From Calothrix sp. NIES-2100 (GTDB taxonomy: Bacteria > Cyanobacteriota > Cyanobacteriia > Cyanobacteriales > Nostocaceae), in contig AP018178.1 in the NCBI GenBank assembly GCA_002368195.1, forward strand, positions 5,337,286 to 5,401,285: a stretch of DNA of 64,000 nucleotides. The letters run 5' to 3'. Below the pieces are notes generated by a model. The model did no database searches. It was not told where the DNA came from and saw only the letters and a program-made list of their open reading frames with translations. Position 1 is the stretch's first letter. Every line of letters starts with the position of its first letter. Positions 9,791 to 50,653 of this stretch are shown piece after piece. The translations under genes and the position numbers were made by a program.

Positions 9791-9888
9791 GACATTTAAG
9801 ACATTTAAGACATTTAAGACATTTAAGACATTTAAGACATTTAAGACATTTAAGACATTTAAGATTTAAGACAGTTAAAACACTTAAG
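9791..9888. repeat. Tandem repeat of the 9-bp unit GACATTTAA, about 8 perfect copies plus degenerate copies.
   Basis: Read directly: gacatttaa repeated 9791..9862, decaying into gatttaagacagttaaaacacttaag. Confidence 0.9.
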
Positions 9889-10078
9889 TGAAAAATTATG
9901 TAAATAATATACTAGTTGCTGCAACTGACAATAATTGAACAATATTTAACGATAAGTGAATGTTTGTCTACACATCAAACTTTGCGGGGAAATATATATC
10001 CTAGATTGCATCGCCACAAATTTTGCACAAATTATCTAGTATGAAGTTAATATAAGAATTTGATATCAAATATCTGAT

Positions 10079-20487: not shown

Positions 20488-21395
20488 AATAATTTACATT
20501 AATATCTCTTAGTCAATCAAAACTCAGCTAGCAGCAACTGTCAATTCAAGGGTTCTAGATATACACATTAAGGCTACTCTTGCAACCTTGATAATTGTAA
20601 ATTTAGTACACAATAGCGGAAATAAAGCCATCCCTCACAATGGCGCGAACATCTGATATGGTGAGCTTTTTGAATTCCGCACACCAGTACTAGGTTTTAA
20701 CCCCCAAGCTTATTTAAACATGGTAATTACCTATTCAAAGTTATTTTATCATTTTAAAATGAGGAACATATGAAGAAAGTAAAATTAGTGTTTTTACTTG
20801 TTTTAACCGAGACTTTATAGATAGTTTATTGATTCTTTATAGAAAGTGTAATATGTTGAAAACGGTAGTTTTTATTACATAAAATTTAGCTATTTATTGT
20901 AAACAGTCTGAAATAATACCAATAATTAACAAAAGATTTAAAAAAATGCAGTTTTATGTCAAAAAAATAAACTTGCACAATCTGGTTAAAAAACAGATCA
21001 GTAAATTTATCGAGGTGTAGTAACATCATATTTGCATTATGAATAAAACAACGAAAATTTATGTACTGGAAAATTTACCAAGAATTTATTTTTTAATAAG
21101 TATTTACGTAAGACAATATGGTTCAGATGCTCATCAGGTTGATTATGAATAAATAAGTTAGTTAATTTGAAAAGTATCCTAAAAATTCGCCAATACCATC
21201 TCTAAAAATAGATTTTCAATTCTCAAAAAAATCTAACGATTGAAACGTATTGGTTGAACATCTAAAGTTTCAACATCATTTCAGGATAGAGGGTGATTAG
21301 TTTCACTTCTAGCCAACTTTTTGATGTATACATGCTGAAAAATTTATTTTTTGAGGCAGACAAAAAAATTTCATTATCATTTAGGGAGAAAAAGA

Positions 21396-22606
21396 TGGCT
21401 AAAAAAATATTAGTAACCGGAGGAGCAGGTTATATTGGCTCCCATACAATCCGTCAATTAGGAGAAGCTGGCTATGATGTAGTGGTTTATGACAACCTCT
21501 CTACAGGTTCAGCAGCATCAGTAATTTATGGTGAACTAATTATTGGTAGTCTCGACGATAAAAATTTATTATCTCAAACATTTAGTCAACACAAATTTGA
21601 TGCAGTTTTGCATTTTGCAGCTCATCTATCTGTACCAGAGTCAGTAGTAAAACCTCTTGATTACTATACAAATAATACTTGTAATACCCTGAATTTATTG
21701 CATTGTTGTCAATTATTTGATGTAAAAAAAATAATTTTTTCTAGTACAGCTGCGGTTTATGGTCAACCTGAGGAATATCCCGTAACAGAGTTATCACCGA
21801 CCAAACCCATGAATCCCTATGGTCGTTCCAAGCTGATGAGCGAACAAATTATCCAAGACTTTGCGCAAGCATCTGGATTAAAATACGTGATTTTACGTTA
21901 CTTTAATGTCGCTGGAGCAGATACTACAGGAAAGTTAGGTCAGTCTGCCAAGAAAGCAGAACACTTAATTAAAGTGGCTTGTGATGCAGCTTTAGGTCGT
22001 CGTCCCTGTGTGAATATCTTTGGAACAGACTTTCCCACCGCAGATGGAACGGGAATTAGAGATTACATCCATGTGGAAGATTTAGCTACAGCCCATGTTG
22101 ATGCGTTGCAGTATCTCGAAGCAGGAAATGACAGTCAAATATTCAACTGTGGTTATGGTCAAGGCTATAGCGTGCGGGAAGTCTTAAAGATGGTGCAGAA
22201 AATCTCTGGAGTAGACTTTCCTGTAATTGAAAACCAACGACGAGCAGGAGATCCGGCTTGTGTTGTAGCCAGCGCTGATAAAATTCGCACCATATTAGGT
22301 TGGGAACCCAAATACAACAATTTAGAAACCATTGTCTCTACAGCTTTAAACTGGGAGAAAAAATTAATTGCTTTGGCCACATTAGAAAAACAGCTAGCAC
22401 AACAGAATTTCCGGCTAGGTGCTCTATTGCTAGAAAACAAAATTATTTCATCGACCGAATTAGAACGAGCTTTACACGAGCAATTAGTCACTAAGCAGAA
22501 ATTAGGGGAAATATTGGTGCATAAGTCAATTATTTCCACTCAAATGCTGGAAAAATTTTTGTTAGAGCAAACTTGGAGAAAACAAGGCATTTGGTTGCAA
22601 GTGTAA
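21396..22606 (+). CDS. galE: UDP-hexose 4-epimerase (GalE/SDR family) fused to a C-terminal T2SSE_N/MshEN-like domain with two tandem c-di-GMP-binding-type motifs.
   Basis: Start chosen at MAKKILVTGGAGYIGSH (Rossmann GxxGxxG) with GGAGAAAAAG 6 bp upstream. The track ORF begins 103 bp earlier with no RBS. YxxxK epimerase core. The C-terminus has RLGALLLENKIISSTELERALHEQ and KLGEILVHKSIISTQMLEKFLLEQ (22412..22560), which fit the RLGxxLLxxGxIxxxxLxxALxxQ MshEN motif. Confidence 0.8.
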
Positions 22607-22829: not shown

Positions 22830-25800
22830 ATGAGTAATGATCTGTTGATAATCGACCTCGAAGAGGTATTAAAAAGAGCAATAAATAACATTAGCGAATT
22901 CTTTACATCTGCTGAGTATGCGCAGAAAATGAATTTAGCATTTGGAGAAAAGTGGGATCAAGAGAAAGCCAAGAAGGTAATTGCGGGAATCATCAACAAT
23001 ACAAACCTCCCAGAAATTCAAGTAGTTGACTCTTTAGAAATAAATGGTGGACAAGGAGCTTTTGGGAGTTTTAACCAGACAATTTATTTATCAAAAGCGC
23101 TTTTAAATGATGCAGTCAAAAGTGTTGATGTCCTGATAGAAGAACTAGGGCATTTTATAGATTCGCAGATAAATATTCAAGATGCACAGGGCGATGAAGG
23201 AGCAATTTTTGCCGCAATCGTCCAAGGTAAAGAGCTAACTCAAACTCAACTCTTAGGGTTGAAAAGTGAGAACGATACAACAAATGTCATCATCAATGGA
23301 GAAGCCAGAACATTAGAGCTAGCAGCTACCTACGGTAATATTAGCCTCGATGGTAACTTAAGTGATTGGACATCAGCAGAGAGATTAGATTTTCTTCCTG
23401 GAACAGGAATACCAGGATACGAAATCTATGGAAAGTATGCAGGAGATGCTTATGTATTCGCCTTGAAATCGGATACCCAAGCGATAGGTGCGGGCACAAC
23501 ATTCTGGCTAAATACAGACAGAAATGCGAGTACAGGTTATCAAATATTTGGTCAGACTGGAGTAGGAGGAGCCGAATATAACGTTGATTTCTTTACAGAT
23601 AATGTACCCTCTTTATACACAGGAGGAGCCGGAGCCAATTTGGTCGGTGGTTCTTTAAACTATGCCTATGGTACTAATAATCAAATAGTTGAATTCGCCG
23701 TTCCAATAGCACTTTTAAATGGAGCGCCACAAGCAATTGATGTTTTGACGGATATTAATAACCAAACATTTTTACCGTCTAATTATTCATCTCAAAAATA
23801 TACGGTTTCTGTTTTACCACCAAGAACAGACTTTAGTAAGAAGGTTGGGATAGTATTTTCGGAAACTACAGCGAAAAATTTCTTTCAAGATAAAGCCTAT
23901 ACCCAACTCTTCCTGTCGATGCAAAGCCAAGCAATGCAGGCGGGTATTCCCTTTGATATTCTCACAGAGAATGACTTAACAGACCTCAGCAAGGTTGTTA
24001 ATTATGATGCGCTGATATTTCCTTCTTTCCGAAATGTACCTCTGGCGAAGCTGGATGCAATTCAAAATACACTCACACAAGCCGTCTACAAATATAATAT
24101 TGGACTGATTACAGCTGGAGACTTTTTAACTAACGATGAAAATAATAATGCTTTAGCCGGAGATTCCTACATCCGGATGAAGCAGTTGTTGAATGTGACT
24201 AGAACTGGTGGCGGTGGGCCAGTCAATGGTGTTCTCAACGCTGAGGATATTGCTCATCCAGTGATGCAAGGTTATTCTACGGACGAGGCGATTCGTAGTT
24301 ATAACGGCATCTTTTTTAATAGCTATGGTGATGCAGATAGTACAGACAATAAAACACCCATAGTTCTCGCAGATTTTTTGGTAAATGGGCAGAAAAATAA
24401 TGCTGTACTAGCAACACAAACCGGTGGTAGAAACGTCCATTTTGCCACTGAAGGGTTCATGGGAGATAACAATTTACTGTGGAAAGCATTGCAATGGGCT
24501 GTTCTTGATAACAAACCCAAAGTAGCGTTAAACATGAGCCGGGATGCAAGTATATTTGTTTCGCGGACTGATATGGATCAGTCTCAGGAAGCTGAGGATG
24601 TGAATCCGGTGGGAACTACTCCAGGGATTTACGATCGCCTGCTGCCGACTCTGACACAATGGAAAAACGACTATAATTTTGTCGGGTCATACTACATCAA
24701 TGTGGGTAACAATCCAGCAAATGGGCAAGTGACTGACTGGACTGTCTCCAAGCCTTACTATAATCAAATCCTGGCTCTACAAAACGAAATTGGTACCCAC
24801 TCTTATACTCACCCCGAAGACACAAATCAGAACACCTATAAAGAAAATAATGCGTCGGCTCCTATAACTCCCACTCTCACTGATGCACAATATGCTACTA
24901 AGTTGGAGTTTGAATTTAACCAATCACAATTAGTCATTGAGCAACAGTTAGGAATTCAAGTTTCAGGCGCAGCGATTCCCGGCGCACCAGAAGGTTTAGG
25001 AGTTTCCCAAGAGCTTCAGAAATACCTATCCTATGTTTCTGGTGGTTATGCAAGTGTAGGTGCAGGTTATCCCAGTGCTTTTGGCTTTATGTTTCCGGGT
25101 AAGGATTATGTCTATTTAGCCCCGAACATGTCCTTTGATTTTTCGCTGGTAGAGTTTCGCAAGTTAACAACACAGCAAGCGGAAGCAGAATGGCTTAAAG
25201 AATATACTGGTTTAACCAATCATGCAGCCCAAGCTATCATTCATTTTCCTTGGCATGATTATGGCCCTACAGCGTGGGATACTAGTCCAGAGGATAATCT
25301 ACCCTCGCCTTACAATCAGGCAATGTTTACTAATTTCCTTGCCAGAGCATACAAGGATAATACAGAGTTTATTACCGCGTTAGATTTAAGCGATCGCATC
25401 AGAACTTTTGAGAAATCACAATTAACTATTGATTATCCCAGTGCAAATACTATTACTGCTACTGTTGCAGGAGTTACTAATGTAGGGACTTTTGGTTTAA
25501 ATATCGATCCAACTCAAACCATTAAAAGTGTGAATGGTTGGTATGCCTACGATAAAGATACGGTATTCTTACCAGCTAATGGCGGTCAATTTACAATCAA
25601 TTTGGGAACTCTTCAAGATGATGTGACCCATATTACTGACCTACCAATGCGTGGCGAATTGAAGTCTGTTATCGGTAATGGCACTGATTTAGAATTTACA
25701 TTCTTTGGTGAGGGTAAAGTTGTCTTAGATTTAAAAAATCCCACTGGATTGAATATTGTCACTCAAGGTGCAAGTAGTACGACTCTCAACGGTGAGATTC

Positions 25801-27092
25801 TCGAGATGAATTTTAGCGGTCTGAGTCTACACACTGGCAAAGTGACATTAGCTCCAGATACTCCCCCAACAGTAGCTAACCCAATTGCCGATGTCAGCGT
25901 ACTTGAGGATGCAGCAGATACTGTAATTAATTTAAGTAATGTCTTCACAGATATTGATAACGCTGTTACTGGCATTACTAAGACAGTTAAAGCTAATAGC
26001 AATAGTGGCTTAGTTAATGCCAGCATTGTTAACAATAATCTGACTCTGGATTATCTACCGAATCAATTTGGGACTGCGACAATTACTATTACTGGTACAT
26101 CTAATGGCAAAACTGTTGATGATACCTTTACAGTCAACGTTGCGCCTGTGGATGATGCGCCGACTGTGGTTACTCCAATTGCTGATGTTATTGTTAATCA
26201 AGGTTCTGCTAACACTAATATTAATTTAGGTAGTGTCTTTACTGATATAGATAACGATGCTGCGGCGATTACTAAGTCAATTGTCACCAATAGCAATAAC
26301 ACCTTGGTGAATGCCTCAATTGTGGGTAATTCTTTAACCTTGCAATATTTACCCAATCAATTTGGTAATGCGCAAGTGACTGTGCGTGGTACATCTGGCG
26401 GTAAAACAGTTGATGATACTTTTAGTGTCACTGTTAACCCTGTGGGCAATATCATTAATGGTACTGCTGCAAACAACTCTCTTTTAGGTACTTCAGGTAG
26501 AGATATCATTAGCGGATTTGGTGGTAATGACACCATAGATCCTAGAGAGGGTAATGATGTTGTTTATGGTGGCGATGGTAACGATTATGTTTTGGGAAGT
26601 TTAGGGGATGATTTAATTTATGGGGACGCTGGTAACGATACGTTATTCGGTGGCTCAAATAACGATACCCTTACTGGTGGTAAAAATAGTGACCGATTAG
26701 TTGGTGACTCAGGAATTGACACTCTGATTGGTGTCAACCCCAATGATACTTTAGCTGGAGCAGGAGAAATTGATACCTTAACTGGTGGTACTCAAGCTGA
26801 TTTATTTGTTCTCGGTGATAGAACTAAGGCTTACTACAATGATGGTAATAATCTTAGCTCTGGCACGGGTGACTATGCTCTAATTACAGACTTCAGTACC
26901 TTTGAGGGAGATAAAATCCAACTTTTTGGTAGCGCCGCCAACTATAGAATCAATAATCTTTCATTTAGTTTATCATTGGGCTTCCATAGCGCGCTTTACT
27001 TAAGAACTGGCGGTCAGGATGAGCTAATAGGAGCGATTCAAGGATTTAATAGCCTGAGTCTTACTAGTAGCAGTTTCAGCTATGTGAGCTAA
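22830..27092 (+). CDS. Giant secreted multidomain protein, paralogue 1 (1420 aa). Conserved N-terminal module, NodB-like metal-dependent deacetylase/esterase motif, Ig/FN-like segment, 2 cadherin-like (DDAP-type) repeats, RTX nonapeptide Ca-binding repeats, conserved C-terminal domain.
   Basis: [12 protein letters not shown] (H-S-x-x-H NodB motif 2). Repeats [18 protein letters not shown]...[13 protein letters not shown]. GGxGNDxLxG-type repeats GFGGNDTIDPREGNDVVYGGDGNDYVLG. No N-terminal signal peptide (T1SS-type substrate expected). Confidence 0.8.
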   Translation: MSNDLLIIDLEEVLKRAINNISEFFTSAEYAQKMNLAFGEKWDQEKAKKVIAGIINNTNLPEIQVVDSLEINGGQGAFGSFNQTIYLSKALLNDAVKSVDVLIEELGHFIDSQINIQDAQGDEGAIFAAIVQGKELTQTQLLGLKSENDTTNVIINGEARTLELAATYGNISLDGNLSDWTSAERLDFLPGTGIPGYEIYGKYAGDAYVFALKSDTQAIGAGTTFWLNTDRNASTGYQIFGQTGVGGAEYNVDFFTDNVPSLYTGGAGANLVGGSLNYAYGTNNQIVEFAVPIALLNGAPQAIDVLTDINNQTFLPSNYSSQKYTVSVLPPRTDFSKKVGIVFSETTAKNFFQDKAYTQLFLSMQSQAMQAGIPFDILTENDLTDLSKVVNYDALIFPSFRNVPLAKLDAIQNTLTQAVYKYNIGLITAGDFLTNDENNNALAGDSYIRMKQLLNVTRTGGGGPVNGVLNAEDIAHPVMQGYSTDEAIRSYNGIFFNSYGDADSTDNKTPIVLADFLVNGQKNNAVLATQTGGRNVHFATEGFMGDNNLLWKALQWAVLDNKPKVALNMSRDASIFVSRTDMDQSQEAEDVNPVGTTPGIYDRLLPTLTQWKNDYNFVGSYYINVGNNPANGQVTDWTVSKPYYNQILALQNEIGTHSYTHPEDTNQNTYKENNASAPITPTLTDAQYATKLEFEFNQSQLVIEQQLGIQVSGAAIPGAPEGLGVSQELQKYLSYVSGGYASVGAGYPSAFGFMFPGKDYVYLAPNMSFDFSLVEFRKLTTQQAEAEWLKEYTGLTNHAAQAIIHFPWHDYGPTAWDTSPEDNLPSPYNQAMFTNFLARAYKDNTEFITALDLSDRIRTFEKSQLTIDYPSANTITATVAGVTNVGTFGLNIDPTQTIKSVNGWYAYDKDTVFLPANGGQFTINLGTLQDDVTHITDLPMRGELKSVIGNGTDLEFTFFGEGKVVLDLKNPTGLNIVTQGASSTTLNGEILEMNFSGLSLHTGKVTLAPDTPPTVANPIADVSVLEDAADTVINLSNVFTDIDNAVTGITKTVKANSNSGLVNASIVNNNLTLDYLPNQFGTATITITGTSNGKTVDDTFTVNVAPVDDAPTVVTPIADVIVNQGSANTNINLGSVFTDIDNDAAAITKSIVTNSNNTLVNASIVGNSLTLQYLPNQFGNAQVTVRGTSGGKTVDDTFSVTVNPVGNIINGTAANNSLLGTSGRDIISGFGGNDTIDPREGNDVVYGGDGNDYVLGSLGDDLIYGDAGNDTLFGGSNNDTLTGGKNSDRLVGDSGIDTLIGVNPNDTLAGAGEIDTLTGGTQADLFVLGDRTKAYYNDGNNLSSGTGDYALITDFSTFEGDKIQLFGSAANYRINNLSFSLSLGFHSALYLRTGGQDELIGAIQGFNSLSLTSSSFSYVS

Positions 27093-27122
27093 ATAATTAC
27101 TAGCCTTTAGTTTGCGTGATTA

Positions 27123-27170
27123 ACTCATACAGAGGAAGACACTTCCATACAAGTGTACCTCTGTTGAGTC
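27123..27170 (+). terminator. Conserved stem-loop downstream of paralogue 1 (stem actcaTAcagagg / cctctgttgagt).
   Basis: Seen directly. Homologous hairpins follow paralogues 2 and 3. Confidence 0.4.
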
Positions 27171-27347
27171 AGCTAAAAAAGAAAGTGCAAGTCACAAAAA
27201 GTAAGTATATAAAATTAATATATTTTTGATTTTATATATACAAAAATCATCTTTTATTTGCCGGAATTAACTACAGATTTTTGTATTATTAATTATTGGA
27301 TATTAGTCAGTTTTGGAAAATTACATATCTTAAAAAAATAAAAACTT

Positions 27348-30300
27348 ATGAATAATAGTCTGTTAATGCCTAATGTTGAAGAATTGCTAAAAAGAGCAAT
27401 AAATAACATCAGTGAATTCTTTACCTCTCCAGATTATGCTGAAAAGATGAATTTAGCATTTGGAGAGAAATGGGATGAAACAAAAGCTAAGAATGTAATT
27501 CAAGGATTAATAACCTATACAAACATCCCCGAAATTAAAATAGTTGAATCCTTAGAAATTAATGGAGGACAAGGTGCTTATGGCAGTGTTAAGCAAACGA
27601 TTTATTTATCGACAGCAATTTTAAATGACCCAGTCAAAAGTGTTGATGTCCTGATAGAAGAACTAGGGCATTTTATAGATTCGCAGATAAATATTCAAGA
27701 TGCTCAGGGCGATGAAGGAGCAATTTTTGCCGCAATAGTCCAAGGTAAAGAGCTAACGCCAACACAACTGGTAGGGTTGAAAAGTGAGAATGATACAACT
27801 AATGTCATCATCAATGGACAAGCCAGAACATTAGAGTTAGCCGCTACATACGGTAATATTACCCTCGATGGCAACTTAAGTGATTGGACATCAGCAGATA
27901 GATTAGATGATCTTCCTGGGACAAGAGTACCAGGATACGAACTCTATGGAAAGTACGCAGGTGATGCTTATGTTTTCGCCTTTAAATCGAATAGCGAACA
28001 GATAGGTGCGGGCGCAACATTATGGCTAAATACAGATAGAAATTCGCTCACAGGCTATCAAATATTTGGTTTAACGGGAATTGGGGGAGCAGAATATAAC
28101 GTCAACTTTTTTAGTGATGATAAACCCTATCTTTATACAGGTGCAGACGGAGAAAATTTTGTCACAGGTCCCTTAGACTATGGCTATGGTACGAATAATC
28201 AAATAGTCGAATTCGCCGTGCCCATATCTCTGCTCAATGGAGCGCCACAAGCAATTGATGTGGTAGTCGATATTAATAATGACACATTTTTACCATCTGA
28301 TTATTCTACGCAAAAATATACGGTTTATGCCACACCACCAGTTTTACCACCAAGGACAGATTTTAGTAAAAAGGTAGGCATAGTATTTTCGGAAACAACA
28401 GCGAAAAACTTCTTTCAAGATAAAGCGTATACCCAACTGTTCATGTCGATGCAAAGCCAAGCGATGCAGGCGGGTATACCCTTTGATATCCTCACGGAAG
28501 ATGACTTAACTGATATCAATAAAGTTGTCAATTATGATGCGCTAATCTTTCCCTACTTCGCAAATGTGCCTCTGGCGAAACTAGATGCTATTGAAAATAC
28601 ACTCACACATGCAGTGTATAACTATAACATCGGGATTATTACCGCCGGAGATTTCTTAACTAACGATGAAAATAATAATGCTTTAGCCGGAGATTCCTAC
28701 ATCCGGATGAAGCAGTTGTTGAATGTGACTAGAATTGGTGGTAGCCCCGAAAATATACTTGTAAATGGCATTCTCAACACTGAAGATATTACTCATCCAG
28801 TGATGAAAGGCTACTCTACTGATGAGGTAATTCGTACTTACAACAATATCACTTTTAATAGTTATGGTGATGCTGACCCTATAGATGATAAAGCACCTAT
28901 AGTTCTTGCAGATTTTGAGGTAAATGGGGAGAAGAACAATGCTGTTTTAGCGACGCAAACCGGAGGCAGAAATGTCCACTTTAGCACTCCGGGATTCATG
29001 GCTGATAACAATTTAGTCTGGCAAGCATTGCAATGGGCTGTTTTAGATAACAAACCCAAAGTGGCTTTAAACATGAGTCGGGATGAGAGTATTTTTATCT
29101 CTCGCAATGACATGGATCAGTCTCAGGAATATGCTGATGTTAATCCTTCAGGAACCACTCCAGGGATTTACGATAAACTGCTTCCCATCCTGACGCAATG
29201 GAAAAATGACTATAATTTTGTCGGCTCATACTATATTAATGTCGGTAACAATCCCGCAAATGAGCAATTTACTGATTGGAATATTTCCAAGCCTTACTAT
29301 GAGCAAATGCTGGCTCTGCAAAATGAAATTGGTACCCATTCTTATACTCACCCAGAATTTACTGATCAATTAACTGCTGCGCAATTGGAGTTTGAATTCA
29401 ACCAATCGAAATTAGTTATTGAGCAACAGTTAGGAATTCAAGTCAAAGGTGCAGCGATTCCCGGAAACCCAGAAGGTTTAGGAGTTTCCCAAGAACTTCA
29501 GAAATATTTATCTTATGTTTCTGGTGGATATGCCAGTGTGGGTGCAGGTTATCCCAATGCTTTTGGGTTTATGTTTCCGGGTAGTGATTATGTCTATTTT
29601 GCCCCGAACATGTCCTTCGACTTTTCCCTGGTGGAATTTCGCAAGTTAACACCACAACTAGCCGAAGCCGAATGGCTTAAAGAGTACACTGGGTTAACCA
29701 ATCATGCATCCCAAGCCATCATCCATTTTCCTTGGCATGATTATGCTCCGACAGTCTGGGATACAGATCCAGAGGATAACATCCCTTCGCCTTACACTCA
29801 GGCAATGTTTACTAATTTTATTGCCAGAGCGTACAACGATAATACGGAGTTTGTCACCGTTGCTGATTTGAGCGATCGCATCAAAACTTTTGAGAAATCA
29901 CAATTAACTCTCGATTATCCTAGTACAAATACTATTACTGCTACTGTTGCAGGAGTTACTGATGTAGGCACTTTTGGTCTGAATATTGATCCGACTCAAA
30001 CAATCCAGAGTGTCAATAACTGGTATGCTTACGATAAAGATACGGTATTTTTACCAGCTAATGGCGGTCAATTTACGATCAATTTGGGAACTCTTCAAGA
30101 TGATGTGACCCATATTATTGACCTACCCATGCGTGGCGAATTGAAGTCTGTTCTTGGGGATGGTACAGATTTAGAATTTACATTTTTTGGTGAGGGTAAA
30201 GTTGTCTTAGATTTAAAAAATCCTACTGGATTGAATATTGCTACTCAAGGTGCAAGTAATACGACTCTCAACGGTGAGATTCTTGAGATGAATTTTAGCG

Positions 30301-32801
30301 GTGTGAGTCTACATACTGGTAAAGTGACATTAGCTCCGGATACTCCCCCTACAGTAGCTAACCCAATTGCCGATGTCAGCGTACTTGAGGATGCCGCAAA
30401 TACTGTTATTAATTTAAGTAATGTCTTCACGGATATTGATAATGATCCTAGTGCAATTATCAAGACGATTCCAGCTAACAGCAACAGTAGTTTGGTTAAT
30501 GCCAGTATTGTTAACAATGAGTTGATTCTGGCTTATTTACCTAATCAATTTGGTACGGCAGAAATTACTATTAGCGGTACATCTCATGGCAAAACTGTTG
30601 ATAATACCTTTACAGTTAACGTTACTGCTGTGGATGATGCACCTATAGTAGCCAACCCTATCACAGATGTGAATAGTAGCGAAGATGCGCCTAACACTAT
30701 TATTGATTTAAGCCAGGTCTTCACTGACATTGATAACGATCCTATTGCAATTATCAAGACGCTTCAGGCTAACAGCAATAGTAGTTTAGTTAATGCGAGT
30801 ATTGATGGTAATAACTTAGTTCTGGCTTATTTACCTAATCAATTTGGTACGGCGGCAATTACCATTAGCGGTACATCTAATGGCAAAACTGTTGATCATA
30901 CCTTTACAGTTAATGTTGCTCCTGTGGATGATGCACCTACAGTAGCCAACCCTATTGTGGATGTGAATAGTAGTGAAGATGCACCTAACACCATTATTGA
31001 TTTAAGCCAGGTCTTCACTGATATTGATAATGATCCTAGTGCAATTATCAAGACGCTTTCAGCTAATAGCAACAGTAGTTTAGTTAATGCCAGCATTGTT
31101 AATAATGCCTTGATTTTTGCTTATCAACCTAACCAATTTGGGACGGCGGCAATTACTATTAATGGCATATCCAACGGCAAAACCGTCGATAATACCTTTA
31201 CAGTTAACGTTGTGCCTGTAGATGATGCGCCGATTGTGGTTACTCCAATTGCCGATATTTTTGTTAATCAAGGTTCTGCTAACACAATTATTAATTTAGG
31301 CAGTGTCTTTACTGATATTGATAATGATCCGACTGCCATCACTAAGGCGGTTGTGACTAATAGCAATAACACCTTGGTTAATGCCAGTATTGTGGGTAAT
31401 TCTTTAACACTGCAATATTTACCCAATCAGTTTGGTACTGCACAAGTTACTGTTCGTGGTAATTCTAACGATTTAACTGTTGATGATACTTTTAGTGTGA
31501 CTGTCAATCCCGTGGGTAATATCATTAACGGTACGGATGCAAACAACATCATTGCAGGTACTTCAGCTAGAGATATCATTAGCGGATTTGGCGGTGACGA
31601 TAGCATTGATGGGAAAGCGGGAAATGATGTGATTTATGCTGGTGATGGCAACGATACTCTGATTGGTGGTACTGGCAATGATAGTCTCTATGGTGGAGTT
31701 GGCAACGATAAGTATACGGTGGATAGTTTAGGAGATGTAATCATTGAAAACATCAATTCAGGCATAGATACCGTTAGTGCCTCAATTAGCTACACTTTGG
31801 CAGATAACGTTGAAAATCTCACCTTAACTGGTACATCAGCTATCAACGGTATCGGTAACAATCTTAATAACATCCTCACTGGGAACGCTGGTAATAACAT
31901 CCTCACTGGAAACGCTGGCAATGATAGCCTCAACGGTGGTGCTGGCGATGATATCCTGAATGGCGATGATGGCGACGATAGTTTGATTGGTGGCACTGGT
32001 AATGATACTCTCTACGGTGGAGTTGGCAACGATAGCTATACAGTGGATAGTATAGGAGATGCGATCGCTGAAAACGTTAATTCAGGCATAGATACCGTTA
32101 GTGCCTCAATTAGCTACACTTTGACAGATAACGTTGAAAATCTCACTTTAACAGGTACATTAGCTACTGAGGGTATAGGTAATAATCTCAACAATAATAT
32201 TACTGGGAACGCTGCTAATAACATCCTCACTGGGAACGCTGGCAATGACATCCTCACTGGGAACGCTGGCGATGATATCCTGAATGGTGGTGATGGCGAT
32301 GATCAACTCAAGGCTGGCGTGGGTAACGATATACTCTATGGTGATATCGGTAACGATCTGCTAGATGGTGGTGACAATAATGATACTTTGTACGCTGGTC
32401 GAGGTAATGATAGTGTCTTGGGTGGTAAGGGTATCGATACTCTCATTGGTGTAAACCCCAACGATATCTTGGCAGGAGCAGGAGAGATTGATACCTTAAC
32501 TGGTGGTACAGAGGCTGATTTATTTATTCTAGGCGATCGCAATCAGGCTTACTACAATGATGGAAATAATGCCAACCTAGGGTTAGGTGATTATGCGCTG
32601 ATTACTGACTTCCGTATTGCTCAAGGAGATAAGATCCAACTCTTTGGCAATTCTAGTAACTATTTCTTAGGTGCTTCCCCAACTGGCTTACCTACAGGTA
32701 GAGCAATTTTCCTGAAAACTTCTAATCAAAATGAATTGATTGCAATTGTTCAAGGAGATACTAGTGTGACTGCTATTACTAGCGGCTTGAGCTTTGTTTA
32801 A
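27348..32801 (+). CDS. Giant secreted multidomain protein, paralogue 2 (1817 aa). Same architecture with 5 cadherin-like repeats and an expanded, internally duplicated RTX region.
   Basis: Near-identical to paralogue 1 over the first ~1000 aa (identical stretches such as gaaaataataatgctttagccggagattcctacatccggatgaagcagttgttgaatgtgactagaa in both). Five ~95-aa DDAP repeats 30340..31500. Duplicated block YTVDS(L/I)GD...[14 protein letters not shown](A/T)[11 protein letters not shown]. Confidence 0.8.
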
Positions 32802-32830
32802 CAACTTATAGCATTGAGATTGGTTGATTA

Positions 32831-32861
32831 ACTCAACAGAGAAACTTTACCTCTGTTGAGT
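32831..32861 (+). terminator. Conserved stem-loop downstream of paralogue 2 (perfect 11-bp stem actcaacagag / ctctgttgagt, 9-nt loop).
   Basis: Seen directly. There is no U-tract, so it may be an RNA stability or processing element rather than an intrinsic terminator. Confidence 0.4.
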
Positions 32862-33053
32862 CCACTAAAACAAAGTTGCACACAAGCTAGCAATTGCACC
32901 GATCGCAGTCAGCAGCGAAAATCAAGATTTTGCAATTGTATACCTACCCAAAAACATTTGGGATTTCTCTGAATCAACCGTAGTTTACTGTGTTATTAAA
33001 TATTGCACAGTAGTTATTTTTTTTACTTTATATGTTTTAAAAGTGAAATTATT

Positions 33054-36000
33054 ATGAGTAATGAACTGCTGAAGAACAACCTGGAAGAGATTTTAAAAAG
33101 AGCAATAAATAATATTAGTGAATTCTTCAGATCTGCTGATTATACGTCCAAAATGAACCTAGCATTTGGGGAGAAGTGGAATAAAGAGAAAGCCAAGAAT
33201 GTCATTACTGGAATCATCAACTATACAAACTTACCAGAAGTAAAAATAGTTGAGCCTGTAGAAATAAATGGAGGAAAAGGAGCATTTGGTAGTTTTAACA
33301 ACACAATTTATTTATCCTCAGCAATTTTAAATGATGCAGGTAAAAGTGTTGGTGTTCTCATAGAAGAATTAGGACATTATATAGATTCGCAGATAAATAG
33401 AGAAGATGCACAGGGCGATGAAGGAGCAATTTTTACAGCAATAGTCCAAGGTAAAGAGCTAACTCCAACTCAACTCTTAGGCTTGAAAAGTGAGAATGAT
33501 ACAACTAATGTCATCATCAATGGACAAGCCAGAACATTAGAGTTAGCCGCTACATACGGTAATATTAGCCTGGATGGCAACTTAAGTGATTGGACATCAG
33601 CAGATAGATTAGATGATCTTCCTGGGACAAGAGTACCAGGATACGAACTCTATGGAAAGTATGCAGGTGATGCTTATGTTTTCGCCTTTAAATCGAGTAA
33701 TGAACAGATAGGTGCGGGCACAACCTTATGGCTGAATACAGATAGAAATTCGCTCACAGGCTATCAAATATTTGGCTTAACGGGAATTGGGGGAGCAGAA
33801 TATAACGTCAACTTCTTTAGTAATGATAAACCCTATCTTTATACAGGTGCAGACGGAGAAAATTTTGTCAAAGGTCCATTAAACTATGCCTATGGTACTA
33901 ATAATCAAATCGTCGAATTCGCAGTCCCAATATCCCTCCTGAATGGAGCGCCACAGGCAATTGATGTGGTGGTCGATATTAATAACAAAACATTTTTACC
34001 CTCTGATTATTCTACGCAAAAATATACGGTTTATGCGACACCATCAGTTTTACCAGCAAGAACAGATTTTAGTAAAAAGGTAGGCATAGTATTTTCCGAA
34101 ACAACAGCGAAAAACTTCTTTCAAGACAAAGCGTATACCCAACTGTTCCTGTCGATGCAAAGCCAAGCGATGCAGGCGGGTATACCCTTTGATATTCTCA
34201 CCGAAAATGACTTGACAGACCTGAGTAAGGTTGTTAATTATGATGCGCTGATATTTCCTTCTTTCCGAAATGTGCCTCTGGCAAAGCTGGATGCAATTCA
34301 AAATACACTCACACAAGCAGTCTACAAATATAATATTGGACTGATTACTGCTGGAGATTTCTTAACTAACGATGAAAATAATAAGGCTTTAGCCGGAGAT
34401 TCATACATCCGGATGAAGCAGTTGTTGAATGTGACTAGAACTGGTGGCGGTGGGCCTGTTAATGGGATTCTCAACGCTGAGGATATTGCTCATCCAGTGA
34501 TGCAAGGTTACTCTACGGACGAGGCGATTCGTAGTTATAACGGCATTTTTTTTAATAGCTATGGTGATGCAGATACTACAGACAATAAAACACCCACAGT
34601 CCTCGCAGATTTTTTGGTAAATGGGGTAAAGAACAATGCTGTACTAGCGACGCAAACCGGTGGTAGAAACGTGCATTTTGCCACTGAAGGATTCATGGGT
34701 GATAACAATTTAGTCTGGCAAGCATTGCAATGGGCTGTGTTAGATAATAAACCCAAAGTGGCTTTAAACATGAGTCGGGATGCGAGTATTTTTATCTCTC
34801 GCAATGACATGGATCAGTCTCAGGAATCTTTAGATGTCAATCCTGAAGGTAATACTCCAGGGATTTACGATCGCCTGCTGCCGATTCTGAGCCAATGGAA
34901 AAACGACTATAATTTTGTCGGCTCATACTACATTAATGTCGGTAACAATCGCGCGGATGAGCAATTTACCGATTGGACTGTCTCCAAGCCTTACTATAAC
35001 CAAATCCTAGCACTCCAAAATGAAATTGGTACCCATTCCTATACGCACCCAGAATTCACCGATCAATTAACTCCCGCACAATTGGAGTTTGAATTTAATC
35101 AATCAAAATCAATCATCTCCCAAAGGTTAAGAGTTCCAGTCGTAGGTGCAGCAATTCCGGGAAACCCAGAAGGTTTAGGAGTTTCCCAAGAACTTCAGAA
35201 ATACTTATCCTATGTTTCTGGTGGATATGCCAGTGTCGGTGCAGGTTATCCCAATGCTTTTGGCTTCATGTTTCCGGGTAGCGATTATGTCTACTTTGCG
35301 CCAAACATGTCCTTTGACTTTTCCTTGGTGGAGTTTCGTAAGTTAACACCACAACAAGCCTCTGCTGAATGGATTAAAGAATACACTGGCTTAACCAATC
35401 ACGCCGCCCAAGCAATCATCCATTTTCCTTGGCACGATTATGGCCCGACATTGTGGGATACAGATCCAGAGGATAACATCCCCTCGCCTTACACTGAGGC
35501 AATGTTTACGAATTTTATTGCCCAGGCATACAACGATAATACGGAATTTGTTACCGTCGCCGATTTAAGTAACCGCATCAAAACCTTTGAGAAATCACAG
35601 TTATTTATTGATAGTAGTGGCAATACGATTACGGCTAATGTTGTGGCTACTAATGTGGGCACTTTTGGTTTGAATGTCGAGCCTACTCAAACGATTCAAA
35701 GTGTGAATAATTGGTATGCTTACGATAAAGATACGGTATTTTTACCTGCCAATGGCGGTCAATTTACGATTAATTTGGGCACAATTGCAGATGATGTTAC
35801 CCATATTATTGACTTGCCCATGCGTGCCCAACTCACGTCTACTGTTGGTAATGGCACAGATTTAGAATTTTCCTTCTTTGGTGAGGGGAAAGTTGTCTTA
35901 GATTTAAAAAATCCCACGGGATTGAATCTTGTGACTGAAGGTGCAAGCACGACAACTCTCAAGGGTGAGATTCTCGAGATGAATTTCAATGGTCTTACCC

Positions 36001-36794
36001 AACATACTGGTAAGGTGAAATTAACTCCAAATGGTCTGCCGATAGGTGGCAATATCATTAATGGTACGGCTGCAAACGACAACATTCAAGGTACTTCAGG
36101 TAGAGATATCATTAGCGGATTTGGCGGTGACGACACCATCGATGGCAGACAAGGTAATGATGTGATTTATGGTGGTGATGGTAAGGATAATCTTCGGGGA
36201 AACATAGGGGATGATTTGATTTATGGGGACGCTGATAATGACACTATAGATGGTGGAGATAATAACGATACCTTATATGGCGGTGATGGCGACGATCAAC
36301 TCAAGGGTGCTAAGGGTGATGACATACTCTATGGCGATATCGGTAACGATAAACTAGACGGTTTAGACGATAATGATACTTTGTATGGTGGTAAAGGTAA
36401 TGATGATGTCAGGGGTGGTAAAGGTGTAGATACTCTTGTGGGTGTAGATCCCAAGGATATATTGGCAGGAGTAGGGGAGATTGATAAGTTAAGTGGTGGC
36501 GAGGAAGGTGATTTATTTATTCTTGGCGATCGCAATCAGGCTTACTACAATGATGGAAATAATACCAACTTGGGGTTAGGTGACTATGTGCTGATTACTG
36601 ATTTCAATAGCCAAGAGGGAGATAAAATCCAACTCTATGGTAGTGCTGATAACTATTTCTTAGGTGCTTCACCAAAAGGCTTACCTAAAGGTACGGCGAT
36701 TTTCTTGAGAACTTCCAATCAAAATGAATTGATTGCAATTGTTCAAGGAGATACTAATGTCAATAGTATTAGTAGCACCTTCAAATTTATGTAG
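33054..36794 (+). CDS. Giant secreted multidomain protein, paralogue 3 (about 1247 aa from MSNELL). Same N-terminal modules, no cadherin-like repeats, RTX repeats, same C-terminal domain.
   Basis: Start moved to ATG 33054 ([25 protein letters not shown] aligns with [25 protein letters not shown] of paralogue 1). The track start 33003 adds a hydrophobic nonsense leader. Confidence 0.8.
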   Translation: MSNELLKNNLEEILKRAINNISEFFRSADYTSKMNLAFGEKWNKEKAKNVITGIINYTNLPEVKIVEPVEINGGKGAFGSFNNTIYLSSAILNDAGKSVGVLIEELGHYIDSQINREDAQGDEGAIFTAIVQGKELTPTQLLGLKSENDTTNVIINGQARTLELAATYGNISLDGNLSDWTSADRLDDLPGTRVPGYELYGKYAGDAYVFAFKSSNEQIGAGTTLWLNTDRNSLTGYQIFGLTGIGGAEYNVNFFSNDKPYLYTGADGENFVKGPLNYAYGTNNQIVEFAVPISLLNGAPQAIDVVVDINNKTFLPSDYSTQKYTVYATPSVLPARTDFSKKVGIVFSETTAKNFFQDKAYTQLFLSMQSQAMQAGIPFDILTENDLTDLSKVVNYDALIFPSFRNVPLAKLDAIQNTLTQAVYKYNIGLITAGDFLTNDENNKALAGDSYIRMKQLLNVTRTGGGGPVNGILNAEDIAHPVMQGYSTDEAIRSYNGIFFNSYGDADTTDNKTPTVLADFLVNGVKNNAVLATQTGGRNVHFATEGFMGDNNLVWQALQWAVLDNKPKVALNMSRDASIFISRNDMDQSQESLDVNPEGNTPGIYDRLLPILSQWKNDYNFVGSYYINVGNNRADEQFTDWTVSKPYYNQILALQNEIGTHSYTHPEFTDQLTPAQLEFEFNQSKSIISQRLRVPVVGAAIPGNPEGLGVSQELQKYLSYVSGGYASVGAGYPNAFGFMFPGSDYVYFAPNMSFDFSLVEFRKLTPQQASAEWIKEYTGLTNHAAQAIIHFPWHDYGPTLWDTDPEDNIPSPYTEAMFTNFIAQAYNDNTEFVTVADLSNRIKTFEKSQLFIDSSGNTITANVVATNVGTFGLNVEPTQTIQSVNNWYAYDKDTVFLPANGGQFTINLGTIADDVTHIIDLPMRAQLTSTVGNGTDLEFSFFGEGKVVLDLKNPTGLNLVTEGASTTTLKGEILEMNFNGLTQHTGKVKLTPNGLPIGGNIINGTAANDNIQGTSGRDIISGFGGDDTIDGRQGNDVIYGGDGKDNLRGNIGDDLIYGDADNDTIDGGDNNDTLYGGDGDDQLKGAKGDDILYGDIGNDKLDGLDDNDTLYGGKGNDDVRGGKGVDTLVGVDPKDILAGVGEIDKLSGGEEGDLFILGDRNQAYYNDGNNTNLGLGDYVLITDFNSQEGDKIQLYGSADNYFLGASPKGLPKGTAIFLRTSNQNELIAIVQGDTNVNSISSTFKFM

Positions 36795-36847: not shown

Positions 36848-36885
36848 CATACAGAGTGGGCACTTAATTGTAAGTGTTCACTCTG
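36848..36885 (+). terminator. Conserved stem-loop downstream of paralogue 3 (acagagtg ... cactctgt).
   Basis: Seen directly. Same family as 27123..27170 and 32831..32861. Confidence 0.35.
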
Positions 36886-36987
36886 TTGCAGTATTAAAAA
36901 AGCGGCTACCCGCAGGATATATAAACTGTGGGTTGCAAAGAGTAAAAGGCTTTTAAATTTGGCATACACATAAAATTACATAAAATT

Positions 36988-38535
36988 ATGATTTCACAAG
37001 AGCAAAAAATATTAGAGCTAGTTAGCGCTATTGAAGAAATTACTGCGGAACCTGCTGATTTTTGGCAAATAACGGCAATTATAGAATCATTAGGTTATAC
37101 CGATAGATTTATTCGCCAGGAATTTGGGTTTCCAGATGCTTTATCTCTGGCTAAGTATGTTTACGAGCATCACAATTTCTCGCCAGCATCGAAATCAATA
37201 TCACCGCGAAAAAATACTTTGCGGAATATTATTAAGGAGATTCAAATATTCGTTGAGCAATTCTCACAAAGTTTTGTTTTTGCTCTACCGTTGCTGCTGA
37301 TATTGCTGTTAGAGTCTGTCCAGATAGATAATCAATCTCAACTATTACCACCGGAACTTGCATCACTGATCACTTTGGCAACTATGGCAAGTCTCACTAT
37401 TAGTGGGGGATTTGTACAAATGATTAGCCGAAGGGGAGAGTTTTATCTGAAGTTGGGTGAGCCAATGCAAGCTAGAAGAGTTTGTTTCCCAATTATTTAT
37501 TTAGGTGCGGCTACTAGTATTATCTTGGGTTTATTTGGGCTATGGTTTGGTTTTTATCAAGGTCAGTTTGCTGATGAATATTTGATTCTGGCTGCTTTGT
37601 ATTATCTAGTGCTGAGTTTACTCTGGATGCTGTTAGCGGCCGTGGCGATTCAATTACGCTGGTGTACACCAATAATTATGTTGGGTTTAAGCATACTGTT
37701 TGTGTTTTTAAGAGTTTGGGTGAATATAGATGCACTGACAGCCCAAATCATTAGTATGTTTGCCACTTTATTAGTAGTAAGCTGCTTAGTTGGATTTGGA
37801 TTTGGTAAAGATAAGAAAACAGGTCAAAGTAGTGGCGCGAAAGTTCCCTTACCTCGCTTGAGTGCCCTGGTATACTTATTAGCTCCTTATTTCTTTTACG
37901 GCATAGCTTATTTTAGTTTTATTTTTGGCGATCGCATGGTGGCAGGTTGGGCTGTAAATCCTGCTTCTGGGCTAGTTTTTGCGATTAATGCTGATTATCA
38001 ACGGGCGATGGATTTAGCCCTAGTGAATTTTCTGTTGCTGGTGCCACTAGTTGAATATTTAAGTTATCGATTTATTAGTTACTGGTTTGGAAAGTCAAAA
38101 AATCTGAATGGTGAAAACCTGACTAAATTTTATCGAAAATTGTTTTATCGCTACTGGTTAACTGTTGCGTTAACTGTGATATTTTTTGGACTATGTATGG
38201 CTGGCACATTTGGATTTTTAAAACCAGCAAGTTGGAGTACACAGATAAATTTACAGTCTTTGTTTGGCTGCTTAGGTTATTTGTTTTTTGTCATCGGGTT
38301 ATTGAATGCGATATTGTTGTTTAGTTTGAATCAAGCAGCTATGGTAGTTAAAAGTATTATCCCTGCTTTGATACTAAATTTGACTTTGGGTTACATCTTG
38401 GCGCATGTTATTAGTCCAGATTGTGCTGTGATTGGTTTAGTCACTGCTGCTGCTTTGTTTATGTTGCGCTCAACTTATAAAGTTTTGCAAGCGATGAAAC
38501 AACTTGACTATATATATTATGTTGCTGGATATTAA
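36988..38535 (+). CDS. Polytopic membrane protein (about 12 TM, 515 aa) with about 95-aa cytoplasmic N-terminus. Possible polysaccharide exporter/flippase-like (PST/MATE-like, PelG-like size).
   Basis: Hydrophobicity pattern only. No diagnostic motif recognised. Confidence 0.45.
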   Translation: MISQEQKILELVSAIEEITAEPADFWQITAIIESLGYTDRFIRQEFGFPDALSLAKYVYEHHNFSPASKSISPRKNTLRNIIKEIQIFVEQFSQSFVFALPLLLILLLESVQIDNQSQLLPPELASLITLATMASLTISGGFVQMISRRGEFYLKLGEPMQARRVCFPIIYLGAATSIILGLFGLWFGFYQGQFADEYLILAALYYLVLSLLWMLLAAVAIQLRWCTPIIMLGLSILFVFLRVWVNIDALTAQIISMFATLLVVSCLVGFGFGKDKKTGQSSGAKVPLPRLSALVYLLAPYFFYGIAYFSFIFGDRMVAGWAVNPASGLVFAINADYQRAMDLALVNFLLLVPLVEYLSYRFISYWFGKSKNLNGENLTKFYRKLFYRYWLTVALTVIFFGLCMAGTFGFLKPASWSTQINLQSLFGCLGYLFFVIGLLNAILLFSLNQAAMVVKSIIPALILNLTLGYILAHVISPDCAVIGLVTAAALFMLRSTYKVLQAMKQLDYIYYVAGY

Positions 38536-49500: not shown

Positions 49501-49600
49501 AGGGAGCAGAGGGGACAAGGGAGACAAGGGAGACAATTAACTGTTGACTGTTGACTGTTGAGTGTTGACTGTTGTCCAATGCCCAATGCCCATTAAATCC
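49501..49600. repeat. STRR-type heptamer arrays (GGGGACAAGGGAGACAA; CTGTTGA x5 = STRR3 CAACAGT family; CAATGCC units).
   Basis: Read directly. Confidence 0.85.
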
Positions 49601-50456: not shown

Positions 50457-50653
50457 TTGTCAATTGTCATTTGTCATTGGGCATGGGGCATGGGGCATTG
50501 GGCATGGGGCATTGGGCATTGGAAACAATTTTGGATTTTGGATTTTGGATTTTACATTGGAATCCAAAATCGCAAATCTAAAATCTAAAATTTCTTGTCC
50601 TCCTTGTCCTCCTTGTCTCCCTTGTCCCCTCATCCCCCTCATCCCCCTCTGCC
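50457..50653. repeat. Compound STRR array filling the hpnJ-hpnK spacer. It has TTGTCAA/TTGTCAT units, (GGGCATG/GGGCATT) x7, GGATTTT x3 facing AATCCAAAAT/CTAAAAT, then (CTTGTCCTC, CCTCATCCC) units.
   Basis: Read directly. It contains a long imperfect inverted repeat (ggattttggattttggatttt / aatccaaaatcgcaaatctaaaatctaaaat). Confidence 0.85.

Follow-up and report, generated by a model that had tools for sequence, protein, structure and literature searches.

Three tandem RTX-bearing genes of Calothrix sp. NIES-2100 encode candidate PelA-like polysaccharide deacetylases in a conserved cyanobacterial exopolysaccharide locus

Background

Partial de-N-acetylation makes the polysaccharides Pel, galactosaminogalactan (GAG) and poly-N-acetylglucosamine (PNAG) cationic and adhesive, and the deacetylases of this kind that were characterised earlier each founded a CAZy carbohydrate esterase (CE) family: CE18, CE21 and CE26. 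Here we describe three adjacent genes, A, B and C, in a 64,000-nucleotide stretch of the Calothrix sp. NIES-2100 chromosome (contig AP018178.1, positions 5,337,286 to 5,401,285 of the forward strand; hereafter the window). Their products combine a predicted PelA-like deacetylase core with C-terminal RTX repeats, and they lie in an exopolysaccharide locus. We regard it as probable, with moderate confidence, that the three proteins modify a Pel/GAG-like polymer extracellularly as Ca2+-dependent de-N-acetylases, which a type I secretion system probably exports. RefSeq already gives all three the generic label 'polysaccharide deacetylase'; what is new is the PelA-like architecture, together with the recombining triplet, its conserved setting in cyanobacteria and the likely RTX-linked delivery. 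Searches of the open-access literature turned up no account of this family, and none of an RTX-linked polysaccharide deacetylase, a GalE-MshEN fusion or a Pel/GAG-like locus in cyanobacteria.

Three types of described enzyme are closest to the triplet. Agd3 of Aspergillus (CE18 with a CBM87 module; PDB 6nwz) is a secreted enzyme that acts on GAG extracellularly, and Spherulin4 genes are found in the bacterial clusters of its type (PMC7229062). PelA of Pseudomonas (CE21; PDB 9cgy) is periplasmic, works with PelB and carries an N-terminal GH166 hydrolase domain. PelA_DA of Bacillus cereus (CE26 with a CBM114 module; PDB 9ZAU) consists of an alpha/beta/alpha carbohydrate-binding domain, a CE barrel and a beta-sandwich, and acts outside the cytoplasmic membrane on alpha-1,4-GalNAc. 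According to the epsSMASH preprint, 'pel-like' clusters with pelFG are widespread.

A different precedent for paralogous polysaccharide-modifying enzymes with RTX modules is AlgE1-7 of Azotobacter vinelandii; the AlgE proteins are type I substrates, the system encoded by eexDEF being of type I, and their module numbers vary between paralogs. They are Ca2+-binding, modular enzymes that tailor an exopolysaccharide after polymerisation in the extracytoplasmic space, and they are exported by the eexDEF-encoded system (PMC6140867). The AlgE proteins differ from the proteins described here in reaction (epimerisation rather than deacetylation), catalytic fold and polymer, so the analogy is one of working, not of ancestry.

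Results and discussion

The gene triplet

The three genes are as follows (aa, amino acids; ORF, open reading frame).

22830..27092, + strand: gene A, 1420 aa (BAY24531); ORF with an exact GenBank match
27348..32801, + strand: gene B, 1817 aa (BAY24532); shared core, short loop, four repeats and an enlarged RTX region
33054..36794, + strand: gene C, 1246 aa (BAY24533); shared core, short loop and no cadherin-like repeats

As an initial annotation of this DNA had noted, the genes are consecutive and co-oriented (ORFs 22830-27092, 27348-32801 and 33003-36794); they are spaced by 200-260 nt, and BAY24531, BAY24532 and BAY24533 of the NIES-2100 chromosome are exact matches of the three ORFs. GenBank labels the first two 'peptidase-like protein'. 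The likeliest start of gene C is the ATG at 33054 and not the TTG at 33003, because the GenBank entry uses this ATG and because it aligns with the ATGs of genes A and B. Gene A is the apparent ortholog of the single-copy gene of related strains and equals the Calothrix FACHB-1219 ortholog in length. An assembly artefact or a set of pseudogenes was considered and rejected: the three ORFs are intact, they differ in module content, and the ratio of nonsynonymous to synonymous divergence (dN/dS) among them is 0.16-0.17, which indicates purifying selection on all three copies.

Predicted fold and catalytic residues

The N-terminal 1,010 residues of A can be divided into five domains, and three motifs of likely catalytic importance fall within the fourth.

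22830..23339, + strand: N-terminal zincin-like domain of A (aa 1-170)
23340..23834, + strand: beta-sandwich of A, putatively carbohydrate-binding (aa 171-335), all-beta in the AlphaFold model
23835..24515, + strand: GATase1/ThuA-like alpha/beta domain of A (aa 336-562)
24516..25415, + strand: carbohydrate-esterase (beta/alpha) barrel of A, CE4 superfamily (aa 563-862)
25416..25859, + strand: beta-rich domain of A, completing a PelA-like three-domain core (aa 863-1010)
24564..24578, + strand: R579-T-D581-M-D583, predicted to supply the Arg that activates the base, the catalytic base itself and an Asp that binds metal
24798..24812, + strand: H657-S-Y-T-H661, predicted HxxxH metal-binding motif (MT2/CM2), in the region of the weak CE4 sequence matches
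25248..25262, + strand: P807-W-H809-D-Y, in which His is the predicted catalytic acid (MT5/CM4) and the next residue an invariant Asp

Residues 171-1010 of A were modelled with AlphaFold (AF2) on an alignment of 24 homologs, giving a predicted local distance difference test score (pLDDT) of 87.2 and a predicted template modelling score (pTM) of 0.87. In a Foldseek search of the PDB with this model, the top match by far was PelA of Pseudomonas thermotolerans (9cgy; E 3.5e-19, 729 columns, TM 0.49/0.50), followed by the GATase1/ThuA-like middle domain of GH42 enzymes and then by CE4 deacetylases. The alpha/beta domain of A corresponds to the alpha/beta domain of PelA and to the GH42 middle domain. 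The model predicts a CE-type barrel with an Asp and His-His metal triad and acid/base residues, set in the domain arrangement of PelA. When the beta-sandwich, the alpha/beta and beta-rich domains, one cadherin-like repeat and the last 150 aa were each compared with Pfam and NCBIfam, only RTX matches came back. The beta-sandwich occurs twice in some homologs, as a duplicated unit in the family consensus. The zincin-like domain carries an invariant E104-E105-L-G-H108, which is an HExxH motif with Glu in place of the first His, together with D111, D118 and G121-D-E-G124.

The catalytic motifs are strongly conserved. R-x-D-[MV]-D occurs in 121/121 homologs and HSxxH in 119/121, while WHD is present in 106/121, the other 15 giving no match to the motif. 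None of the three (R-x-D-x-D, HSxxH, WHD) varies in the 24-sequence alignment, and all are intact in A, B and C. The HSYTHP string pointed out in the initial annotation is found in each, at residue 657 in A, 664 in B and 661 in C. Each motif sits at the C-terminal end of a predicted barrel strand, and CE4, CE18, CE21 and CE26 enzymes likewise carry their motifs at such strand ends. It had been allowed that the HSYTHP region might belong to a non-esterase fold lacking the catalytic His and Asp; this was not seen, the model predicting a PelA/CE4 fold with the motifs in place.

Such conservation bears on the idea that A, B and C are mainly RTX surface adhesins or structural proteins of the sheath, with an esterase-like core that binds carbohydrate but does not modify it, and with variation in copies and repeats that would diversify the surface. 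With these residues conserved, a purely binding module is not expected; CE4 pseudoenzymes such as BA3943 are without some of them.

Relation to established deacetylase families

In PelA the first motif is H526-x-D528-x-D530, followed by H600. Activation of the base by H526 is a proposal of the PelA authors, who also point out that this residue superposes on the Arg found in CE4 and CE18 enzymes. In gene A, the D-x-D form and a distance of 76 residues from D581 to H657 of the HxxxH motif resemble D528/D530/H600 of PelA. By analogy, R579, which sits where PelA has H526, may play the same base-activating role. The two proteins differ at the N terminus, since A begins with the zincin-like domain and the beta-sandwich (first 335 aa) where PelA has its GH166 hydrolase; polymer hydrolysis, a function of PelA's own domain, would fall here to a separate Spherulin4 protein. 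They differ also in setting: A, B and C carry RTX repeats, and the window contains neither PelB nor PelC.

Canonical CE4/NodB enzymes have D-D as their first motif instead of the D-x-D found here, and the barrel of the present family always lies inside the three-domain core. Agd3 has adjacent D377/D378 and, owing to a 64-aa beta2 insertion, more than 120 residues to H510 (PMC7229062). The triplet differs from it in D581-x-D583, in the 76 residues to H657 and in the lack of a CM3 Arg; no Arg is invariant between H661 and H809 in the 24-sequence alignment, the invariant ones being R571 and R579, both upstream of the base. Membership of CE18 was therefore dropped, given these differences in motif form and spacing and the failure of the core to match, by hhalign or BLASTP, a 716-aa protein from a Deinococcus pelF/GH114 cluster (a hypothetical protein that is putatively the bacterial Agd3 type). 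PelA_DA was compared through its published three-domain description, which is similar, and 9ZAU was not among the fold-search matches, the Foldseek library ending on 2026-04-08 and the paper dating from 2026-05-07; an Asp near the catalytic His of PelA_DA may activate that His. It has an N-terminal transmembrane anchor and adjacent D262/D263, whereas A, B and C have no N-terminal transmembrane helix. In architecture the proteins are closest to PelA, yet the triplet falls outside CE21, CE18 and Pfam CE4 as these are defined, CE26 having been compared by description.

Repeat modules and secretion

The C-terminal parts of the three proteins differ in their repeat content.

25860..26444, + strand: two cadherin-like 98-aa repeats of A (aa 1011-1205), found by blastp with the repeat unit
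30342..31514, + strand: four cadherin-like 98-aa repeats of B (aa 999-1389); Tandem Repeats Finder (TRF) period 294 nt, 3.1 copies, 82% matches
26445..27089, + strand: RTX nonapeptide block and C-terminal domain of A (PF00353, 7.4e-20)
31515..32798, + strand: RTX region and C-terminal domain of B (PF00353, 3.8e-41; 8 stretches)
36039..36791, + strand: RTX block and C-terminal domain of C (PF00353, 2.2e-24)

The repeats had at first been put at about 95 aa and counted as 2, 5 and 0; the unit is 98 aa and the counts are 2, 4 and 0. Weak Cadherin_4 and tandem-95 matches occur in B; a single repeat gave no Pfam or NCBIfam match. The RTX modules and their variable number were borne out, PF00353 scoring 71, 139 and 85.5 bits in A, B and C over 4, 8 and 4 matched stretches. 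The RTX region of B holds a duplicated module of 324 nt (108 aa; TRF 2.0 copies, 86% matches), and its matches among PDB sequences are CyaA, lipases, serralysins and the R-modules of AlgE. The last 100 aa or so are alike in all three proteins, closest between B and C, in agreement with the conserved C-terminal domain noted at the outset; in A this region resembles the C-terminal part of SMc04171-type RTX proteins.

No signal peptide had been recognised, and inspection agrees: the N terminus (MSNDLLIIDLEEVLKR...) is acidic and its residues 10-25 form a helix of a folded domain. With no N-terminal signal peptide, C-terminal RTX repeats and a conserved C-terminal domain, A, B and C most likely leave the cell through a type I system whose genes lie in another part of the genome. 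Family members that consist of the core only (P0206, P0239 and P0244) carry Sec or lipoprotein signals; together with the RTX C-termini, these were counted as support for action outside the cytoplasm.

The adhesin idea raised above draws on this part of the proteins. RTX adhesins typically are large, have cadherin-like and RTX repeats in variable number and occur as tandem paralogs that undergo gene conversion, all of which is seen here, and many Ig or cadherin domains are frequent in members of the family. Gene C, however, has no cadherin-like repeats, and core-only members exist. With the catalytic motifs intact in all three copies, we consider an adhesin or structural role quite improbable.

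Recombination among the copies

The initial annotation described a near-identical N-terminal region of about 1,000 aa. The shared region is there, at 85-86% identity in protein and 83-87% in DNA, so that it falls short of near-identity. Gene conversion had been proposed from long identical tracts between the copies; such tracts are not seen, the longest exact nucleotide identities being 73-89 nt, and the proposal stands on other evidence, namely clustered mosaic sites. The 557 informative sites divide into 168 that pair A with B, 184 that pair A with C and 205 that pair B with C. They form clusters along the gene, with 264 switches between patterns (0/2000 permutations as low, p<0.0005), and the longest concordant runs have p values of 0.001, 0.008 and 0.0005. 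Synonymous divergence (dS) per 100 codons ranges from 0.18 to more than 0.9 within the same gene pair. Because the site patterns are clustered and dS is uneven along the gene, the mosaic is a signature of gene conversion or recombination among the copies, which conversion would have made partly homogeneous. A simple tree-like history of duplication was rejected, as the three patterns are nearly equally frequent and spatially clustered.

The three copies are closer to one another (85-86% nt) than to the single-copy ortholog of Calothrix FACHB-1219 (79-82%). A conspicuous difference among them is the loop right after the HxxxH motif, which is 30 aa long in A (24813..24902, + strand) because of a 19-aa insertion, while B and C have a loop of 11 aa. 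The 11-aa form occurs in 91/113 family members; the 30-aa form occurs only in A and in the Calothrix FACHB-1219 and Tolypothrix FACHB-123 orthologs, and this segment of A has low pLDDT in the AF2 model. The region equivalent to this loop shapes the substrate cleft in Agd3 and PelA_DA. Despite the insertion that A has in common with the FACHB orthologs, a tree of the whole core places A with B and C, which fits concerted evolution.

Each gene is followed by a hairpin, identified by intergenic alignment and RNA folding.

27124..27169, + strand: hairpin 3' of the stop of gene A (dG -22.4 kcal/mol, z -3.2)
32831..32861, + strand: hairpin 3' of the stop of gene B (dG -17.1 kcal/mol, z -3.7)
36851..36886, + strand: hairpin 3' of the stop of gene C (dG -24.1 kcal/mol, z -5.3)

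These hairpins are homologous and stable, lie 30-60 nt past each stop and have the core CA(A/T)ACAGAG...CTCTGTTG; 0/200 shuffles fold as well. They have no clear U-tract, and a scan for promoter and terminator consensus sequences did no better than on shuffled sequence. They could be terminators or 3' stabilisers that travelled with the duplicated unit.

The surrounding locus

Genes on both sides of the triplet are its candidate partners in the making and export of a polysaccharide.

14279..16096, + strand: response-regulator receiver fused to a membrane-fusion protein of the HlyD/RND-adaptor type (Pfam, NCBIfam)
16103..17623, + strand: PelF-type GT4 glycosyltransferase (DUF3492 and GT4; NCBIfam PelF equivalog, 149.9 bits, cutoff 100)
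17858..18706, + strand: Spherulin4 protein with a lipoprotein-type signal, ...LTATLAC/SNG (Pfam PF12138, 1.7e-54)
18685..20487, - strand: 600-aa polytopic membrane protein outside all Pfam and NCBIfam families, with conserved counterparts in three further cyanobacterial loci
21293..22606, + strand: UDP-glucose/GalNAc 4-epimerase GalE with a C-terminal tandem MshEN motif (GalE equivalog, 475.7 bits)
36988..38535, + strand: 515-aa polytopic membrane protein outside all Pfam and NCBIfam families, with conserved counterparts in three further cyanobacterial loci

PF12138 is also the family of Aspergillus Sph3. The lipoprotein signal of the Spherulin4 protein places this putative hydrolase in the periplasm or at a membrane, unlike the apparently secreted deacetylases. 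As in the GAG-type cluster (uge3, sph3, agd3, ega3, gtb3), a 4-epimerase and a Spherulin4 gene stand beside the deacetylase (PMC7229062). No Ega3-type GH114 gene was found among the scanned ORFs of the window, and the deacetylase is not of the CE18 type.

The GalE protein contains, at aa 374-426, a complete tandem MshEN-type motif for binding of cyclic di-GMP (c-di-GMP), RLGALLLENKIISSTELERALHEQ - LVTKQ - KLGEILVHKSIISTQMLEKFLLEQ, of 24+5+24 residues (NF053729, 51.5 bits, cutoff 38). On this sequence evidence a c-di-GMP receptor fused to a UDP-sugar 4-epimerase would place control at precursor supply and not at the synthase. The GalE-like epimerases of other cyanobacterial loci are also extended (398-408 aa). 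In the protein at 14279-16096 the receiver domain is joined to the adaptor through a transmembrane segment; no gene for an ABC or RND (resistance-nodulation-division) partner was found in the locus. The fusion may link phosphorylation signalling to polymer export.

The 515-aa and 600-aa membrane proteins, searched with four orthologs each, gave no Pfam or NCBIfam match even at E<=10, and hhalign found no match between the 515-aa protein and an annotated PelG of Sulfitobacter. The N-terminal motif of the 515-aa protein (TAIIESLGYTDR...) recurs, at E 6e-5, in a 516-aa Deinococcus gene directly downstream of pelF, and the 515-aa protein could be the PelG-like exporter of this system. That Deinococcus locus holds pelF, the unannotated 516-aa membrane protein gene and two GH114 genes. 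The closest PelF relatives on annotated plasmids come from Deinococcus, Streptomyces and Thermus; Bamford et al. reported bacterial Agd3-type clusters in these lineages, some with Spherulin4 genes (PMC7229062).

Synteny was examined in Pleurocapsa PCC 7327, Planktothrix agardhii, Calothrix FACHB-1219 and one metagenome-assembled genome (MAG; locus L007), which have one deacetylase copy each. PelF, a GalE-like epimerase and an unannotated gene of about 515 aa (in the MAG 520 aa, at the corresponding position beside PelF) occur in 4/4 of these loci, and Spherulin4 and an unannotated gene of about 600 aa in Pleurocapsa, Planktothrix and FACHB-1219. The MAG locus has no Spherulin4 gene and has a 630-aa unannotated gene similar in size to the 600-aa protein. 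A receiver-domain gene of adaptor size adjoins PelF in Pleurocapsa and FACHB-1219; in its stead the MAG has a 418-aa gene with only faint barrel-sandwich matches, and Planktothrix a 520-aa unannotated gene. Gene order in Calothrix FACHB-1219 is that of NIES-2100, and across the five loci it is shuffled. GlmS in the MAG locus and a PGM/PMM gene in 3/4 of the other loci (not FACHB-1219) point to a hexosamine polymer. Since the deacetylase is single-copy in all four, the locus is conserved and its expansion to three deacetylase genes is specific to the lineage.

This synteny also bears on another possibility: that A, B and C are active secreted deacetylases with a different target, such as peptidoglycan, chitin or a foreign polysaccharide (in defence, competition or scavenging), and that the link to PelF is partly incidental. 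All five cyanobacterial loci, NIES-2100 included, have PelF, a GalE-like epimerase and the gene of about 515 aa, and 4/5 have Spherulin4; moreover, the multi-domain architecture is that of PelA and not that of peptidoglycan deacetylases.

The remainder of the window includes an IS605-type OrfB/TnpB gene; genes for an AAA_35 ATPase and an AAA_35-WD40 protein (1185 aa); a group of YdjC, B12-radical-SAM and squalene-phytoene-synthase genes that may be related to hopanoids; and a gene for a GH31 glycosidase. These lie at 3037-4206 (- strand), 7842-13636 (+ strand), 49593-53266 (- strand) and 57539-60016 (+ strand) and are apparently unlinked to the triplet.

Extent of the family

An exhaustive phmmer search with the core of about 675 aa against 1.84 billion representatives, clustered at 50% identity, identified 549 clusters at E<=1e-3, of which 303 reached E<=1e-30. 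Judged by sequence similarity, the deacetylase family is discrete and does not merge with PelA. The three-domain core of about 670 aa is always whole, and the flanks are variable: some proteins, up to 2650 aa long, add RTX and cadherin or Ig arrays, and others consist of the core alone with a Sec or lipoprotein signal. Among GTDB species representatives there are 286 loci, and the family ranges over many cyanobacterial orders, Sphingomonas, Methylobacterium, Roseomonas, Microvirga, Burkholderiales and Thiothrix.

Clustered multiplication of the gene is not unique to NIES-2100, since an array of paralogs is also present on an unrelated JGI metagenome contig, Ga0654466_0000136 (L010, 378-19367). 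This contig has at least four paralogs, of which three (1326, 1586 and 1588 aa) are in tandem; the fourth, of 1427 aa, lies about 4 kb further on and overruns the end of the locus.

Proposed function and its alternatives

The PelA-like fold, the conserved motifs and the synteny with PelF support the suggestion, made when the locus was first annotated, that the triplet fills a PelA/Agd3-type deacetylase role for the neighbouring exopolysaccharide genes. We propose that GalE-MshEN would supply UDP-sugar under c-di-GMP control, that PelF would polymerise it, and that the two orphan membrane proteins and the receiver-adaptor fusion would export the product, which the Spherulin4 lipoprotein would trim. 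A, B and C would leave the cell unfolded through a type I system and fold on extracellular Ca2+, and the cadherin-like repeats (2, 4, 0) would space them from the cell surface or sheath or tether them there. In the predicted active site, D583, H657 and H661 would hold a divalent metal, D581, positioned by R579, would serve as base and H809 as acid. The substrate would be the GalNAc-rich Pel/GAG-like polymer made by the adjacent genes, and its partial de-N-acetylation at the surface or in the sheath would render it cationic and adhesive. The copies differ in their repeat modules and in the loop beside the active site, where a difference could affect specificity or placement; by analogy with AlgE1-7 they may be isoenzymes differing in pattern or location. 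In function the triplet would resemble the secreted Agd3 of fungi, and in organisation the AlgE enzymes. Gene structure, predicted fold, motifs, synteny and mosaicism are what the data show, and from them activity, substrate, export route and division of labour are inferred.

Several observations weigh against this proposal. Searches of PDB sequences by phmmer with gene B and with a 24-sequence profile retrieved neither PelA (9cgy) at E<=1 nor Agd3, and gave only RTX matches and faint CE4 ones (E 0.016-1). The search with the Polysacc_deac_1/CE4 model (PF01522) that had been recommended as a check did not bear out the assignment for the triplet: A has no match, and B and C score 22.4 and 19.1 bits against a gathering threshold of 23.1, although some family members do pass (P0248, 26.1 bits; P0192, 26.7 bits). 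The Arg of R-x-D-x-D occupies the place of PelA's base-activating His526. With the pel operon (pelABCDEFG) the locus has PelF in common, and neither PelB, PelC, PelD, PelE nor a recognisable PelG was found in the window by Pfam or NCBIfam. No type I ABC exporter or TolC-like gene was found in the 64-kb window, and its sole adaptor, which has no ABC partner, scores as RND/ABC (DevB)-type and not as type I HlyD. The N-terminal zincin-like domain has no part in the proposed mechanism. The polymer of the locus has never been characterised, and we found no enzymatic, proteomic or genetic data on any family member in the open-access literature. Finally, the two proteobacterial homologs whose gene context was examined, one from a Burkholderiales MAG and the other from an unassigned metagenome contig, have no exopolysaccharide genes beside them; the family is therefore not tied to a PelF locus everywhere.

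The last of these observations is the main one that speaks for secreted deacetylases with another target, an explanation that we consider unlikely in view of the conserved cyanobacterial synteny and the PelA-like arrangement of domains. That the proteins are secreted metalloproteases or bifunctional enzymes acting through the zincin-like domain, in the manner of serralysin-type RTX proteases, is very improbable, given a degenerate zincin motif and a domain that most of the family can do without.

A bolder form of the proposal can be put forward only tentatively, and we think it possible but doubtful. The locus would represent a fourth type of Pel/GAG-like system besides the Gram-negative pel, Gram-positive pel and fungal GAG systems. 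In it, c-di-GMP would act on precursor supply via GalE-MshEN, and two orphan membrane proteins and a phosphorylation-controlled adaptor would export the polymer. PelA-like deacetylases forming a CE family of their own would be delivered by type I secretion and act outside the outer membrane, and A, B and C would be true AlgE-like isoenzymes whose loops (30 versus 11 aa) and tethers (2, 4, 0) set deacetylation patterns or depth in the sheath.

Conclusions

The family described here appears to be a fourth PelA-like lineage, with 549 clusters, and is common in cyanobacteria and in Alphaproteobacteria of the Sphingomonas and Methylobacterium types. Its cyanobacterial members combine a Pel glycosyltransferase, GAG-type accessory genes and, apparently, type I secretion, which would place the tailoring of the polymer outside the outer membrane. 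If the proposed function is correct, the triplet would be a second case, after AlgE, of a secreted battery of RTX isoenzymes that edits an exopolysaccharide, and it would add a link to the proposed bacterial-fungal history of GAG/Pel systems. It would also open sheath and biofilm adhesion to genetic study in filamentous cyanobacteria and in bloom-forming ones, including Planktothrix agardhii.

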